From Escherichia coli (GTDB taxonomy: Bacteria > Pseudomonadota > Gammaproteobacteria > Enterobacterales > Enterobacteriaceae): a stretch of 6,256 nt of DNA. A program made the position numbers and the translations under genes. Below the pieces are notes generated by a model. That model did not search any database. It saw only the letters and a program-made list of their open reading frames with translations, and was not told the DNA's origin. The stretch is from assembly GCF_003334385.1 (NCBI RefSeq), contig NZ_QOWN01000077.1; one strand, written 5' to 3'. Positions 1 to 6,256 of the stretch are shown here, piece by piece (the first letter of the stretch is position 1; each line of letters begins with the position of its first letter).

Positions 1-20
1 TTATCGTGAGAGTAATTCAT
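1..20 (-). CDS. insL: IS186 transposase, first 6 codons only (MNYSHD); remainder lies outside the window
   Basis: Minus-strand ATG AAT TAC TCT CAC GAT beginning at position 20, 55 bp inside the putative IS terminus at 75. Six codons alone are weak evidence; the call depends on the adjacent inverted-repeat match. Confidence 0.45.
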
Positions 21-75
21 CGGCACGTTAAATCATATCAGGCGTAATACCACAACCCTTAAGTTAGCGCTTATG
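1..75 (-). mobile_element. IS186 (IS4 family) terminal segment; element continues beyond the window start
   Basis: Plus-strand 53-75 caacccttaagttagcgcttatg is the reverse complement of CATAAGCGCTAACTTAAGGGTTG, which I recall as the 23-bp terminal inverted repeat of IS186. On the minus strand an ATG at 20..18 opens MNYSHD, matching the recalled N-terminus of the IS186 transposase InsL. All three plus-strand frames are closed by stops within 1-67, so the flanking cynR frame cannot extend upstream. Identification is from memory, not a database search. Confidence 0.6.
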
Positions 76-341
76 GGCTACATCCACAGGTGGTCATTGA
101 GGCGAACTCAATTAGCGCGGTTCTGGAGCTGATTCGCCGCACTTCCCTTTCCACATTGTTACCAGCAGCGATTGCCACACAACATGACGGGCTTAAAGCT
201 ATTTCTCTTGCCCCGCCACTACTGGAGAGAACGGCGGTTTTGTTGCGGCGGAAAAATAGCTGGCAGACAGCCGCCGCGAAGGCATTTTTGCACATGGCGT
301 TGGATAAATGCGCGGTTGTTGGCGGAAATGAATCACGGTAG
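76..341 (+). pseudogene. cynR: 3' fragment of cynR (LysR-family regulator of the cyanate operon), truncated at the IS186 junction
   Basis: The frame translates ..[86 protein letters not shown] and ends at TAG 339-341, which matches the CynR C-terminus as I recall it. An in-frame TAA at 60-62 lies inside the putative IS inverted repeat, so only about 88 C-terminal codons of a ~299-aa protein remain here. Convergent orientation with codA matches the K-12 codA/cynR arrangement. Confidence 0.75.
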
Positions 342-369
342 CCGCTGACACAGGTCTGCGGCTGGAATT

Positions 370-449
370 GCCTGATGCGCTACGCTTATCAGGCCTACGA
401 GTTCAGTGCTCTACGTAGGCCGGATAAGGCGTTCACGCCGCATCCGGCA
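370..449. repeat. REP pair (BIME-like): gcctgatgcgctacgcttatcaggcctac (370-398) and inverted gtaggccggataaggcgttcacgccgcatccggca (416-449)
   Basis: Classic enterobacterial REP palindromes (GCCTGATGCG...TTATCAGGCCTAC and GCCGGATGCGGCGTGAACGCCTTATCCGGCCTAC families), in inverted orientation. Confidence 0.8.
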
Positions 450-569
450 TAAACTACAGCTGGCAGACAGCCGCTGCGAAGGCATTTTTGCACATGGCGT
501 TGGAGGAATGCGCGGTTGTTGGCGGGAATGAATCACGGTAGCCGCTGACACAGATCAGCGGCTGGAATT

Positions 570-649
570 GCCTGATGCGCTACGCTTATCAGGCCTACGA
601 GTTCAGTGCTCTACGTAGGCCGGATAAGGCGTTCACGCCGCATCCGGCA
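570..649. repeat. Second copy of the REP pair, within tandem-duplication copy 2
   Basis: Same sequences as 370-449 shifted by 200 bp; lies just 3' of the codA stop (678-680) and so is placed to act as the codBA 3' stem-loop or terminator. Confidence 0.8.
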
Positions 650-677
650 TAAACTAAGCTCGCTGTAACCCAGTCGT

Positions 678-1961
678 TCAACGTTTGTAATCGATGGCTT
701 CTGGCTGCTCCAGATATACGGTGGTTTGTGCCGGTTGTGTGCTGGCAATCACCTTGCCGCCACGTACCGAATAACGTACCGGAACCTGACGGCGCAGCGC
801 ATCAAACCCATTTTCAGCCGGCAGGATAATCAGGTTGGCGCTGTTTCCGGCGGCAATGCCGTAATCCTGCAAATTCAACGTCCTTGCGCTGTGGTGGGTG
901 ATTAAATTCAGGCCATCGTTAATCTGCCCGTAGCCCATCAACTGGCAAACATGCAGCCCCATATGCAGCACTTGCAGCATATTCGCCGTTCCCAGCGGAT
1001 ACCACGGATCGAAGACATCATCGTGACCAAAGCAGACGTTAATGCCGGACTCCAGCATCTCTTTAACGCGCGTGATGCCGCGACGTTTTGGATACGTATC
1101 GAAACGTCCTTGCAGATGAATATTGACCAGCGGGTTGGCGACAAAGTTAATACCGGACATTTTCAGCAAGCGGAACAGGCGTGAGGTATACGCCCCGTTA
1201 TAGGAGTGCATTGCCGTGGTGTGGCTGGCGGTGACTCGCGCGCCCATGCCTTCATGGTGCGCCAGGGCAGCAACGGTTTCGACAAAGCGCGACTGCTCGT
1301 CATCGATCTCATCACAGTGAACGTCGATGAGACGGTCGTATTTTTGCGCCAGGGCGAAGGTTTTATGCAGCGACTCCACGCCGTATTCACGGGTAAATTC
1401 AAAATGCGGAATCGCCCCCACTACATCTGCCCCTAAGCGTAACGCCTCTTCCAGCAACGCTTCACCGTTGGGATACGACAAAATCCCTTCCTGAGGGAAG
1501 GCGACGATTTGCAGATCAATCCACGGCGCGACTTCCTGCTTCACTTCCAGCATTGCTTTCAGCGCAGTTAGCGTTGCATCCGAAACATCGACATGGGTAC
1601 GCACATGCTGAATGCCGTTGGCAATCTGCCATTTCAGCGTTTGCCATGCGCGTTGTTTCACATCGTCATGGGTTAATAACGCTTTGCGCTCGGCCCAGCG
1701 TTCAATGCCTTCAAACAGCGTGCCGGACTGATTCCAGTTCGGTTGTCCGGCGGTTTGCGTGGTGTCCAGGTGAATATGTGGCTCCACAAACGGCGGTATA
1801 ACTAAACCTTGTTCGGCATCCAGGCTGTTTTCAGTTATGGGCATCACGCCGGATTGCGCATCAATGGCGCTGATTTTTCCGTCCTGCAGATGAATCTGCC
1901 ACAGCCCCTCTTCGCCTGGTAACCGGGCGTTAATAATTGTTTGTAAAGCGTTATTCGACAC
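678..1961 (-). CDS. codA: Cytosine deaminase (amidohydrolase superfamily), 427 aa, GTG start
   Basis: Translation [38 protein letters not shown]...[10 protein letters not shown] matches E. coli CodA as recalled, with the metal-binding motifs PHIHLD, VHCDE and CFGHDD. The ORF track starts at ATG 1976, but the known protein begins 5 codons later at GTG 1961..1959, preceded by GGAGG (minus-strand ATGTGGAGGCTAACAGTG). Stop TGA at 680..678. Confidence 0.95.
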
Positions 1962-3210
1962 TGTTAGCCTCCACATGCGTCATTGCTGCTGTCGTTTTAC
2001 GATTCAAAATCGGGTTAAGGATCAGATAGCTCAGCGCGCCACCTAATACCGCGTTGACCGGAACAATTCCCGGTAACCAGTGGCCTGCAGCAATCCCCAA
2101 GGCGACCGCCAGAATCGCCACCCAATTGACACTCATCATACGCGTGGTCGCAAAGTGCTCATAGCGGCGACGGTTCATCAGATAGTCGGCGATGATCACG
2201 CCACCCACTGGAGGAATAGCTGCCGAAAGGAAGGTCAACCAGCCGACAAAATTGTTATACAGCCATAATGCGCAGACCGTACCGATAATACCGTTGATTA
2301 CCGAAAGGGTTTTGCTCGACATCCCGGTAATGTTGGCGAAACCTAAACCCGACGCATAGAGTGCGTTATCGTTGGTGGTCCAGATATTCAGCCCCAGCAC
2401 CACAATCGCAGGCAGCAGCAGGCCCTGAGCAATCATCACATCAGAGATATCCGCCATGCCCAGTGCCGCAGCGCCCGCTGCACCGAAAATAAACATCAAC
2501 GAGTTGCCGAGGAAAAAGGCCACCATCGCCACCAGCACCGCCAGTTTGGCATTGCGACCAAACCGGACAAAGTCAGCGGTGAGCGTACCCGCACTGATAA
2601 ATGACCCCACAACCAGCGCCAGCGCGACATTGAAATCTAACGGTTGTGCGGGAACGACCGCTTTTAATGCGTCCAGGCCGCCCATGCCGTTAACAGCCAG
2701 CCACACGGAATAACCGCCCAGGCAGGCGATAGCCGGAACCGCAATCACCGAAAGAACCGTCAGCGCCGAAATGCCAAAAAAGACGGTGACGGTCATCAGT
2801 AAACCGGAAACGGCAATCAGCAAATTAATATCCAGCCCGGTTGCCTTACCCACCGGAATGGCAAACATCGCCACACCGACGCCAAACCAGCCAACCTGAG
2901 TTCCGCCCAGTAGCAGTGAAGGCAGCCATGAGCCTTTAACACCAAACGAGAAGCGAGCAAGAAGATGAGTGGTCAGGCCGGTTTTTGCGCCAATGTAACC
3001 GAGAAATGAAGTGTAAATACCGAGGAGAAGATTACCGATGAGAACTGCGAGGAAGAAATCATGATAGCTAAGACCGGTTCCGAGAGTGCCGCCGGTCCAC
3101 ATACTGGCGGAAAAGAAGGTTAATCCCAGCATGACGAACGTCAATGCCAATACCCCTTTCCGCGCCGACTGCGGGACTGGCCCCTGGCTAAAGTTGTTAT
3201 CTTGCGACAC
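1951..3210 (-). CDS. codB: Cytosine permease (NCS1 family transporter), 419 aa, GTG start
   Basis: Translation [33 protein letters not shown]...THVEANSVE matches E. coli CodB as recalled and is a hydrophobic multi-helix membrane protein. GTG start at 3210..3208 with AAGGGGGA Shine-Dalgarno upstream; stop TAA at 1953..1951 overlaps the codA start by 11 bp. Confidence 0.95.
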
Positions 3211-3276
3211 GAAATTCCCCCTTTTTGCTGTTTGAAACCCAAAAAATCCGCCGCATTCTATTCATCTGAAGATAAA

Positions 3277-3292
3277 AAGCAATCGTTTTCGT
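3277..3292 (-). promoter_or_regulatory. Putative PurR operator (PUR box) of the codBA promoter
   Basis: Minus-strand ACGAAAACGATTGCTT matches the PurR consensus ACGCAAACGTTTGCGT at 13 of 16 positions. It lies about 70-85 bp upstream of the codB GTG, consistent with known purine repression of codBA. Confidence 0.5.
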
Positions 3293-3297
3293 GGGGA

Positions 3298-3325
3298 AAT
3301 ATATTTTTTATATGAATGAGTGCAA
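3298..3325 (-). promoter_or_regulatory. Candidate sigma70 promoter for codBA: -35 TTGCAC (3325..3320), 16-bp spacer, -10 TATATT (3303..3298)
   Basis: Read from the minus strand: TTGCAC TCATTCATATAAAAAA TATATT, placing the transcription start near the PUR box. Motif-level prediction only. Confidence 0.3.
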
Positions 3326-3362
3326 AAAGGTGGGGGAAAAATTATCGGTGTAAAAACAGTGG

Positions 3363-3543
3363 GTAGGCCTGATAAGACGCGTCAGCGTCGCATCAGGCAT
3401 CTGAGCATGGTGTCGGATGCGACGCGAGCGCCTTATCCGACCTACGGTTCAGGTCCGTAGGCATGATAAAACGCGTCAGCGTCGCATCAGGCATCGGCAC
3501 ACAGTGCCGGATGCACCGCGCGACGCATCCGACAATAACCTAC
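3363..3543. repeat. BIME cluster of four REP elements in alternating orientation (3363-3399, 3411-3445, 3458-3494, 3506-3543)
   Basis: gtaggcctgataagacgcgtcagcgtcgcatcaggca, tgtcggatgcgacgcgagcgccttatccgacctac, gtaggcatgataaaacgcgtcagcgtcgcatcaggca and gccggatgcaccgcgcgacgcatccgacaataacctac form two ~95-bp units. The last REP overlaps the stop codon of the upstream ORF (TAG at 3542..3540). Confidence 0.8.
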
Positions 3544-3812
3544 TCTTCCATCGCCTGGCGGATCTGATCCAACGACGCAGGATCATCAATGGTCGTCAGA
3601 TCTCCAGGATCGCGTCCTTCGCAAATCGCCTGGATCGTGCGGCGCAGCATTTTTCCGGATCGCGTTTTTGGCAATTGCGAGACAAACCAGACGTGCGCCG
3701 GGCGGCCAAAGTTGCCAATCTGGCTGTCCACCAGCGCCATAATCGCCTTCTCTTGCGAGTGCGCCACATCACGATCTTCCAGACTGTCGCTCTCTTTCGG
3801 AATGACAAACGC
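3540..3812 (-). pseudogene. prpE: 3' remnant of prpE (last ~89-92 codons plus native stop), fused to yahJ
   Basis: Acyl-CoA synthetase C-terminal signature LPKTRSGKMLRR, and a position immediately upstream of codB separated only by the REP cluster, as for prpE-codB in K-12. The junction is inferred near 3805-3830 (protein ..DASCSAEAVA / FVIPKESD..). Confidence 0.75.
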
Positions 3813-5126
3813 CACCGCCTCGGCGGAACAGGAGGCGTCCACCAGCACAAAGCTGGCGTCATCCTGCGCTTTTGGCCATACACGCTCGCCTTTTTCATTC
3901 AGCGGCAATACATCGCCAGTGGCTAAAAACAGCGAGCGGGAGAGGTTCTGTTCGTTAGGACGAATATAGAGCTGCGCGTACAGATTGGCTTTTTCCAGCA
4001 TGTCGCCCAGACCATAAGGCGACCAGTGGTCGATAACGCTGTCAGTGCCAGTCATCACTTTTACGCCTTTGTCGTGCAACTGTTTGAGCGGCATATGCAG
4101 CGTGCCAATCGGCACCGTCGAGGCGATAGAAATTTGTTGCACCACCATCCGGTTCGCCAGTTCATCTACCTGTTGCTCGTTGAGCGTTGCCAGCGCAAAG
4201 GCGTGACTGATGGTCAGCTTGCCCTTCAGCTGTGGCGTTTTCTCTACCGTTTCAACCATATAATTGATGGCTGCCACGCCTGCCGGAGTGGTTTCGTGCA
4301 GGTGAATATCGACGCCTTTGTCGTAGTCCAGCGCAATCTGGAACATGGTGTCGAGGGATTTTTCCATCGCGCCATCAACACTGGTCGGGTCCAGGCCGCC
4401 GACGTAATGCGCCCCCGCCTGCATCGCTTCACGCATTAAAGGTTCAGATTTCGACAGCAGCAAACCGTGCTGCGGGAAGGCGACGATTTCACACTCAAAG
4501 CCCGCCTGACGTCGCGCCAGCACCGCCTGCAAATTTTGCAGATTTTTCAGGCCGGAAACCGGTTCGATATTGCAGTGGCTGCGGGCAATGGTGGTGCCTT
4601 TCGACTGCAATAAATCAATCAGTTTTTCTGCCCGCTCCTGAGTGTACGGTTGCAGTTCCGGCAGCATTTTCTGCTCGAGTTTGATCATGTCCTGGATGGT
4701 GGTGCCTGCCGGACGATTGAGCGAGCGCCACGGCCCGCCGTAAAAGGTTTTGTCGAGATGAATATGCATGTCGCGGGTGGTGGGCAGCATCAGCTTACCG
4801 CCAGCGTCATAGTGCGGCAGCGTGGCGTCCGGATGCAGCTTGTTCTCGCGCAGGGCGACAATTTTGCCGTCCTGAATCTCCACGGTCTGGCGCGCCGTGC
4901 GGGTCTGCACCGCCACGCCATTTTCGTAGTCAAAACCGGTTTCCAGCAGCACGTTATCGAGATAGTAATGCGGGTCAGTGATTTTCATGGTGTTGTTCGC
5001 TTCGCAGTTTAGGGTGCCAGCTACCGCCGCATGGGCGAGCGGCACAGAGGTACCAAACAGCGCGGCGGCGGTGACCATCTTACCGCTCTGGCTCAGAAAT
5101 TCACGGCGGCTATTGCTTTCTTTCAT
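3540..5126 (-). CDS. yahJ: Chimeric ORF, 528 aa: Tat-signal amidohydrolase (YahJ-like putative deaminase, ~439 aa) fused in frame to the C-terminal 89 aa of propionyl-CoA synthetase PrpE
   Basis: N-terminus MKESNSRREFLSQSGKMVTAAALFGTSVPLAHA carries a twin-arginine motif (SRREFL). The body has amidohydrolase motifs DMHIHLD, DIHLHET and GTDSVIDHW. The C-terminus FVIPKESDSLEDRDVAHSQEKAIMALVDSQIGNFGRPAHVWFVSQLPKTRSGKMLRRTIQAICEGRDPGDLTTIDDPASLDQIRQAMEE contains the acyl-CoA synthetase PKTRSGK motif and matches the PrpE C-terminus as recalled. ATG at 5126..5124 with AAGGA upstream. Confidence 0.8.
   Translation of the reverse strand: MKESNSRREFLSQSGKMVTAAALFGTSVPLAHAAVAGTLNCEANNTMKITDPHYYLDNVLLETGFDYENGVAVQTRTARQTVEIQDGKIVALRENKLHPDATLPHYDAGGKLMLPTTRDMHIHLDKTFYGGPWRSLNRPAGTTIQDMIKLEQKMLPELQPYTQERAEKLIDLLQSKGTTIARSHCNIEPVSGLKNLQNLQAVLARRQAGFECEIVAFPQHGLLLSKSEPLMREAMQAGAHYVGGLDPTSVDGAMEKSLDTMFQIALDYDKGVDIHLHETTPAGVAAINYMVETVEKTPQLKGKLTISHAFALATLNEQQVDELANRMVVQQISIASTVPIGTLHMPLKQLHDKGVKVMTGTDSVIDHWSPYGLGDMLEKANLYAQLYIRPNEQNLSRSLFLATGDVLPLNEKGERVWPKAQDDASFVLVDASCSAEAVAFVIPKESDSLEDRDVAHSQEKAIMALVDSQIGNFGRPAHVWFVSQLPKTRSGKMLRRTIQAICEGRDPGDLTTIDDPASLDQIRQAMEE
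5028..5126 (-). other. Predicted Tat (twin-arginine) signal peptide of the YahJ-like protein, ~33 aa, likely cleaved after AHA
   Basis: S-R-R-E-F-L motif followed by a hydrophobic stretch VTAAALFGTSVPL and an AxA site (AHA|AVAG). Confidence 0.55.
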
Positions 5127-5135
5127 CTTACGTCC

Positions 5136-6086
5136 TTACGTTTTAATAATATGAGTGCCCGTTTCGCCGCGCAGCGCCGCAGGCAGGCATTCCGGCGTGG
5201 TGATAATCACTTCTTTGCCGCCTTGTTCTAAAAATGTCAGGCTGGCGATGATTTTTGGCAACATGCTGCCGGGCGGGAAATGCCCTTCCTGCATATAGCG
5301 GGTCATGGTGGCAATATCCACCCGATCGAGCGCCTGCTGCTGCGGTTTGCCAAAGTGAATACACACTTTTTCGACGCCAGTGGTGATCACAAGAATGTCG
5401 GCGTGAATTTCACGGGCCAGCAGCGCGGTAGAGAGATCTTTGTCGATAACCGCGTCCACGCTTTGGTAATCTCCCGCGTCAGTACGCACTACCGGAATTC
5501 CACCGCCGCCCGCGCCAATTACGACAAAACCTTGTTGGATCAGCGCTTTAATGGCAGGTGCTTCGACAATACGTTTCGGTTCCGGCGAGGCGACCACGCG
5601 GCGATAGCCCCGCCCGGCATCTTCAACAAAACACCAGTCAGGGTTTGCCTTTTGTAATTCGTCACGCTGGCTGTCACTAAAGAATGCGCCGATGGGCTTG
5701 GTGGGATGGGCAAAACCTGGATCGTTTTTATCCACTTCCACCTGAGTCACCACGGTGACGGCTTTCTTCTCGCCGTGACGCGCCAGCCGGTTATTCAGCG
5801 CCTGTTGGATCAGATAGCCGATGCCGCCCTGCGTATCTGCCACACAGTTCGCCAGCGGCGTTAAGGGCAGCCCTTCGCGCTTGTGGGCAATCTCCGCACG
5901 GCGTAAATCCAGCCCGACCTGCGGCCCGTTGCCGTGGGTCAGCACAATGTCGTAATCGGAAGCCAGCATTTCCAGCACCGTATCGGCGACGGCTTTCACC
6001 GCCTCCGCCTGATGCTCAATCGACTGGCTGGCGTTATCTTTGATAATGCTGTTGCCACCAATGGCAACGACCACAAGCTCTTTCAT
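5136..6086 (-). CDS. yahI: Carbamate kinase-like protein (amino acid kinase family), 316 aa
   Basis: Translation MKELVVVAIGGNSI...LTHGNGPQVG...VIGAGGGGIPV... carries carbamate kinase / amino-acid-kinase signatures and matches E. coli YahI as recalled. Stop TAA at 5138..5136 lies 9 bp upstream of the yahJ ATG, suggesting an operon. Confidence 0.9.
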   Translation of the reverse strand: MKELVVVAIGGNSIIKDNASQSIEHQAEAVKAVADTVLEMLASDYDIVLTHGNGPQVGLDLRRAEIAHKREGLPLTPLANCVADTQGGIGYLIQQALNNRLARHGEKKAVTVVTQVEVDKNDPGFAHPTKPIGAFFSDSQRDELQKANPDWCFVEDAGRGYRRVVASPEPKRIVEAPAIKALIQQGFVVIGAGGGGIPVVRTDAGDYQSVDAVIDKDLSTALLAREIHADILVITTGVEKVCIHFGKPQQQALDRVDIATMTRYMQEGHFPPGSMLPKIIASLTFLEQGGKEVIITTPECLPAALRGETGTHIIKT

Positions 6087-6136
6087 GTTGTTATGTCCGC
6101 TACAGAGGGTGATGGGGTTATGACCAACGCCAGACT

Positions 6137-6256
6137 GCCTGATGCGCTACGCTTATCAGGCCTACAATTCTCGCGCCACTCGTAGGCCGGATAAGGCGTT
6201 CACGCCGCATCCGGCAATGGTGACAAATGCCTGATGCGCTACGCTTATCAGGCCTA
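6137..6256. repeat. BIME/REP cluster of at least three REPs (6137-6165, 6182-6216, 6229-6256), running off the window end
   Basis: gcctgatgcgctacgcttatcaggcctac, inverted gtaggccggataaggcgttcacgccgcatccggca, then gcctgatgcgctacgcttatcaggccta; the same REP family as at 370-449. Confidence 0.8.

Follow-up and report, generated by a model that had tools for sequence, protein, structure and literature searches.

The gene order in the window (the whole stretch of 6,256 nucleotides of Escherichia coli DNA that was analysed) is yahI (6086-5136), a 528-aa ORF (5126-3540), codB (3210-1951), and codA (1976-678), all on the minus strand. BLAST comparison with K-12 MG1655 divided the window into two blocks, each a perfect match. 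Window 75-3819 corresponded to K-12 354,313-358,057 at 100% identity, and window 3810-6256 corresponded to 339,995-342,441 as a perfect block. The two blocks share 10 bp, CGCCACCGCC, at 3810-3819. Relative to K-12, an 11.87-kb deletion (342,442-354,312) was found, joined across this 10-bp microhomology. The deletion takes the 3' end of yahJ, yahK, yahL, xtpA, yahM, yahN, yahO, prpR, prpBCD, and most of prpE. Its junction lies inside prpE, 270-280 nt upstream of the prpE stop codon, and the ORF at 3540-5126 is an in-frame fusion of YahJ(1-439) to the C-terminal 89 aa of PrpE. The junction was present in 0 of 5,426 complete E. coli genomes. Only one genome, M23314 (NZ_CP133916.1), covered more than 80% of the window, and it carries an IS621 rearrangement different from the 11.87-kb deletion. 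At 5546-10489 of M23314, codBA lies between two IS621 (IS110-family) copies and adjoins yahI, and the prp, cyn, and lac side is rearranged. This rearrangement likewise places yahI/yahJ beside codBA.

The outer parts of the window were also annotated. An IS186/IS421 (IS4-family) element has inserted in cynR. Its end makes up window 1-74, and the last ~89 codons of cynR (90-341) are all that remains of the gene. The same insertion, with 100% identical flanks, was found in E308, RM10410, EC416, and MEI4BO-21. A 200-bp tandem duplication (258-456 and 458-656, 97% identical) contains the cynR 3' end and a two-REP BIME. The duplication is also present in K-12, and in E308 the PGAP annotation gives a partial hypothetical protein for its second copy. 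At the other end, upstream of yahI, a cluster of at least three REPs (6133-6256) continues past the edge of the window. The K-12 counterpart of this array overlaps the doubtful ORF yahH.

The segment under study, 3211-3543, consists of the 329-bp prpE-codB intergenic region, the stop codon of the fusion ORF, and one extra base. All 329 bases of the intergenic region were identical to K-12 MG1655 by BLAST. A 471-bp query (3150-3620) returned ~1,000 records at 99% identity or higher, and the identical intergenic region is present in hundreds of other genomes. Inspection of the sequence confirmed the PUR box, the promoter, and the four-REP cluster proposed by a first-pass annotation, all for the minus strand. 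The same annotation described the codBA control region as retained intact despite the upstream deletion. The region is indeed intact, at 100% identity to K-12, but its retention is trivial because the deletion stops within prpE, 270-280 nt before the stop codon. The positions of the features are collected in Table 1.

Table 1. Features of the prpE-codB region, with positions in the window.
Feature	Position	Strand	Remarks
Stop codon TAG of the yahJ'-'prpE fusion ORF (native prpE stop)	3540..3542	-	Identical to the K-12 prpE 3' end
REP4, degenerate y-like	3504..3543	-	27/35 to a y consensus; fold -18.5 kcal/mol
REP3, z1-like	3457..3493	+	34/37 to a z1 consensus; hairpin -16.2 kcal/mol on the transcript strand
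BIME unit 2 (REP4 + REP3)	3460..3534	-	RF02564, 44.4 bits, E 1.6e-6, below threshold
REP2, y-like	3411..3445	-	30/35 to a y consensus
REP1, z1	3363..3399	+	36/37 to a z1 consensus; hairpin -21.4 kcal/mol
BIME unit 1 (REP2 + REP1)	3366..3442	-	naRNA4 RF02564, 71.6 bits, E 1.3e-12
Candidate Rho loading (rut) site	3285..3362	-	78 nt just beyond REP1, of which 23 are C and 4 are G
NAC-type site, ATA-N9-TAT	3299..3313	-	Centre 3306, -59 from A3247
PUR box, ACGAAAACGATTGCTT	3277..3292	-	-45 to -30 from A3247
-35 element TTGCTT, within the PUR box	3277..3282	-	16-nt spacer to TAGAAT
-10 element TAGAAT	3255..3260	-	Unique in the window; last base 7 nt upstream of G3248
Transcription starts G3248 (productive) and A3247 (reiterative)	3247..3248	-	Cappable-seq and PMC7039003
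T6 tract of GATTTTTTG	3241..3246	-	Unique match in the window; slippage-prone, UTP-dependent reiterative transcription
codB Shine-Dalgarno region, AAAGGGGG	3217..3224	-	6 nt ahead of the GTG
codB start codon GTG	3208..3210	-	ORF 1951-3210; the annotated K-12 codB start, 354,922

Four REP palindromes of 35-40 nt occupy 3363-3543 in the alternating orientation +,-,+,-, each with a GTAG foot. They were assigned to the z1 and y types by their match to a z1 and a y consensus (Table 1). Two of the GTAG tetranucleotides (3363 and 3457) are on the plus strand, the other two (3445-3442 and 3543-3540) on the minus strand. A REP has been defined as an imperfect palindrome of 30-40 nt with a GTAG tetranucleotide at its foot (PMC3333891), and all four palindromes fit this definition. 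As the first-pass annotation stated, the cluster overlaps the stop codon of the fusion ORF, since the TAG (3542-3540) is contained in the GTAG of REP4 (3543-3540). The RNA hairpin of REP4 (3534-3505) begins 6 nt past this stop codon. REP4 forms an inverted repeat with the head of REP2, and REP2 is 86% complementary to the REPs at 414-449, 614-649, and 6181-6216. REP1 has 14-nt exact matches to other REPs of the window, where further copies lie at 369-449, 569-649, and 6136-6256. The 471-bp query matched a median of 9 places per genome.

The array consists of two 94-bp BIME units in tandem. Within this direct repeat, 3363-3426 and 3457-3520 are 84% identical, and the linkers are 11 nt long. Single REP hairpins have folding energies of -16 to -21 kcal/mol on the transcript strand, and the array as a whole has one of -106.7 kcal/mol (z = -7.2 vs shuffles). 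The naRNA4 family of Rfam was built on a REP pair from REP325. In the Rfam search of 3000-3800, no family was found besides this REP-derived naRNA4. The gathering score of RF02564 is 59.5 bits, which BIME unit 1 reached and BIME unit 2 missed. Among the known BIME classes, BIME-1 is a single-copy combination of z1 and y with a long L linker carrying an IHF site, whereas the array here has 11-nt linkers and is tandem. BIME-2 combines z2 and y, whereas z1 and y are combined here. The array was classed as an atypical BIME because its 11-nt linkers and tandem unit set it apart from BIME-1 (PMC3333891). The copy number of tandem units is known to vary in BIME-2 and in atypical BIMEs (PMC3333891).

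We compared the length of the prpE-codB spacer between strains. The spacer was 235 bp with 2 REPs in E. coli B, 324 bp in UTI89, 329 bp with 4 REPs in K-12 and the window, and 423-424 bp with 6 REPs in two other strains. In O157 ATCC 43889, it was 893 bp (1562-2454) with 16 REPs, a number that is an estimate, a simple head-motif scan having given 14 matches. The spacer lengths changed in steps of ~94 bp, and the flanking genes were constant. The end of the spacer beside the codB start codon was the same in 6 of 6 versions (the window and five strains). These results demonstrated that the REP array at prpE-codB varies widely in copy number among strains. Such a series, running from 2 to 4, 6, and an estimated 16 REPs between unchanged flanking genes, might be expected if the array were neutral selfish DNA, spread by REP-associated transposase or recombination and lacking a meaningful insulating or stabilising role here. 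The highly variable effects of REPs on expression (bioRxiv 10.64898/2026.03.23.713779) would also agree with this reading. We consider it possible but rather unlikely, since each of the six spacer versions carries at least two REPs and the hairpins of the array are stable on the transcript strand. In addition, characterised REPs stabilise upstream mRNA and attenuate read-through (PMC6061677; bioRxiv 10.64898/2026.03.23.713779).

A role of the array in transcript processing was considered together with the sequence that follows it. A scan of 3100-3700 found no minus-strand intrinsic terminator. Past REP1, a U5 run starts 10 nt beyond the stem, so that the hairpin is not immediately followed by a U tract. 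The first-pass annotation regarded the REP cluster as the only barrier between upstream transcription and codBA. This is probably not the case, as the REPs are followed by a C-rich, G-poor stretch that is a candidate for Rho loading. This stretch, 3362-3285, is unstructured and has the strongest bias of C over G anywhere on the minus strand, its C/G ratio being at the 99.9th percentile of all 78-nt windows there, and it extends 8 nt into the PUR box. Dar and Sorek reported that 3' exonucleases are blocked at REP hairpins, that the steady-state 3' ends of Rho-terminated transcripts lie at these hairpins, and that rut sites sit just downstream of them (PMC6061677). The position of 3362-3285, right after the REPs, is where Dar and Sorek place rut sites (PMC6061677), and its composition and position make it a candidate Rho loading site.

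Previous reports also described what REPs can do to the genes around them. REP325 stabilises upstream mRNA and cuts read-through ~8-fold, partly via Rho, and its effects are context-dependent and vary widely (bioRxiv 10.64898/2026.03.23.713779). In the account of Liang et al. 2015 given in PMC12306157, REPs can reduce translation of the gene upstream when they lie less than 16 nt from its stop codon. By analogy with these systems, the transcribed prpE-codB array would form stable hairpins that shield the upstream mRNA from 3' exonucleases. It would also attenuate read-through in part, and Rho would probably load on the C-rich stretch downstream. As the first hairpin begins so close to the stop codon, translation of the upstream ORF may drop. 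The array is probably a partial attenuator and mRNA stabiliser, backed by the candidate Rho loading site.

If attenuation is only partial, transcription from yahI through yahJ'-'prpE could read through the REP cluster and make codBA depend on the upstream operon, as the first-pass annotation suggested for this strain. All genes of the window share one strand, the scan found no intrinsic terminator between the fusion ORF stop and codB, and even the ~8-fold reduction by REP325 is incomplete, as expected of partial attenuators (bioRxiv 10.64898/2026.03.23.713779). We nevertheless regard this dependence as improbable. An identical spacer lies between prpBCDE and codBA in wild-type K-12. Read-through coupling is therefore not special to the deletion strain, and only the promoter that feeds the spacer changes. 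Since prpR and the prp promoter are deleted, only yahI-side transcription would now enter the spacer. Among the Cappable-seq starts listed (one condition), there is no plus-strand start within the ~500 bp upstream of K-12 yahI, so that little transcription may arrive. The C-rich, G-poor stretch past the REPs could load Rho, and codBA owns a strong, regulated start.

The strain-variable REP number (2 to ~16) might also act as a tunable insulator, setting both the leak into codBA and the output of the upstream protein. The second effect is conceivable because the stop codon lies inside a REP. If this were true, codBA in the deletion strain would gain a new input independent of PurR and NAC. We consider such tuning very unlikely, and favour a partial attenuator and mRNA stabiliser in front of a codBA promoter that fires from its own start.

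The position of this start was taken from published data. The supplement of the Cappable-seq study contains a plus-strand start at U00096.2 354,108 (PMC4782308). This was the sole plus-strand start between 347,727 and 355,079 among the Cappable-seq starts listed (one growth condition). It lies 44 nt past the first base of the PUR motif (354,064) and thus corresponds to G3248 of the window. The sequence ATTTTTTG is found at 3247-3240, directly after G3248, and the initially transcribed region of codBA has been given as 5'-ATTTTTTG (PMC7039003). The first-pass annotation proposed a plausible -35/-10 pair. A promoter is present, but no coordinates were given for the pair, and the sole match of the consensus scan differs from the documented pair, TTGCTT(3282-3277)-16-TAGAAT(3260-3255). 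That match, TTTGCA(3326-3321)-17-TATATT(3303-3298), agrees with the sigma-70 consensus at 9/12 positions, the only one to do so on the minus strand of 3100-3700. It was rejected as the codBA promoter for want of a matching published start, for its overlap with the NAC-type site, and for its lack of conservation. It is most unlikely to serve as an additional functional promoter of codBA, with a start near 3291 within the PUR box, since 0.6 such matches are expected by chance, no start near U00096.2 354,065 is found among the Cappable-seq starts listed (354,108 being the single start of the interval), the TATATT hexamer falls within the AT-rich NAC-type site, and the segment, unlike the TAGAAT promoter, is not conserved across species.

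The first-pass annotation also missed the UTP-sensitive GATTTTTTG tract, the most distinctive element in the control of this promoter, and left the NAC site unplaced. Qi and Turnbough reportedly found that G starts lead to productive transcripts, whereas A starts cause stuttering within the T tract when UTP is high. Several papers, citing Qi and Turnbough 1995, describe codBA as controlled by UTP-sensitive start-site switching and non-productive reiterative transcription.

We then compared the PUR box with the PurR consensus and with published PurR data. The sequence ACGAAAACGATTGCTT occurs once in the window, at 3292-3277 on the minus strand. It is the only site of the window with at most 3 mismatches to the palindromic PurR consensus, matching 13 of 16 positions. 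Such sites are expected 0.07 times by chance, and at least one was found in 12 of 200 shuffles. The sequence is exactly that of the published codB-codA PurR ChIP-chip motif, listed in Table 1 of Cho et al. as ACGAAAACGATTGCTT at U00096.2 354,064-354,079 (PMC3159470). Cho et al. also reported that PurR motifs overlie -10 and -35 elements (PMC3159470), and the PUR box covering the codBA -35 agrees with this placement.

A NAC-type site was found upstream of the PUR box. The pattern ATA-N9-TAT has one match in the window, and as 0.65 matches are expected by chance, the pattern alone is not significant. Muse and co-workers are said to have placed the NAC footprint at -59 in 2003. The position of 3299-3313 is consistent with a NAC site there. 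The segment also fits the motif ATAagnaaaanttAT obtained by Nac ChIP-exo, a study in which Nac activates codB.

To follow the promoter elements across species, 80 codB loci, one per species, were taken from the genome collection and anchored on an A-T(5+) run at most 60 nt from the start codon. A PUR-like 16-mer was located exactly 45 nt upstream of the A of this run in 35 promoters (the window and 34 species). The species with the module belong to the Enterobacterales and Pasteurellaceae, in the genera Escherichia, Hafnia, Proteus, Citrobacter, Salmonella, Kluyvera, Edwardsiella, Morganella, Providencia, Budvicia, Pragia, Leminorella, Haemophilus, Aggregatibacter, and others. In the 35 promoters, the conserved columns read acG.AAaCGtTTGCtT, then tATa..At, and then GATTTTTT. 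Of the aligned promoters, at least 90% kept GATTTTTT and at least 90% kept the TTGC of the -35, the next two T of the -35 being less strict. The sequence upstream of the PUR box showed no conservation across the 35 promoters. The alignment thus demonstrates a fixed spacing of the PurR-box/-10/T-run module across Enterobacterales and Pasteurellaceae. Judged from these aligned sequences, the PUR box, -10, and T run form a unit of conservation, and selection acts on the TAGAAT promoter.

The codB promoters of Vibrio and Photobacterium, at the Vibrionaceae loci, are without the PUR-box/T6 module. Their leader, ~100 nt upstream of codB, carries the conserved sequence TTGACT-17-(C/G)ATAAT-ACGCGCCGTTT(G/A). 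The Vibrionaceae codB leader may be another nucleotide-sensitive start region.

We conclude with high confidence that 3211-3543 is an unaltered K-12-like prpE-codB region, in which an atypical BIME array is followed by a classical sigma-70 codBA promoter. At this promoter, PurR represses codBA through the PUR box over the -35, and NAC would activate it from the site centred at -59. Pyrimidine control is exerted by UTP-sensitive start-site switching together with non-productive reiterative transcription in the GATTTTTTG tract. For K-12, the feature has already been described in full detail. It has little meaning beyond correct annotation, being a textbook codBA promoter with a routine REP array. 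The useful outcome is that the real -35/-10 pair is corrected and that exact coordinates are available for every control element.

The codBA promoter of K-12 (Danielsen 1992, Qi and Turnbough 1995, Muse 2003, Cho 2011) is the same as that of the window base for base. Only the upstream gene differs, a yahJ'-'prpE fusion in the window and full-length prpE with the prp operon in K-12. The promoter resembles those of upp-uraA and pyrBI, in which a T run right after the start likewise leads to non-productive stuttering at high UTP. Unlike upp-uraA and pyrBI, codBA adds a PurR operator that covers the -35 and a putative activator site for NAC. The array resembles REP325/naRNA4 in its alternating y and z REPs, GTAG feet, short linkers, and tandem units of strain-variable number. 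REP325 has been tested at the bench, whereas the roles of the prpE-codB array are proposed by analogy with it, and REP4 is degenerate here.
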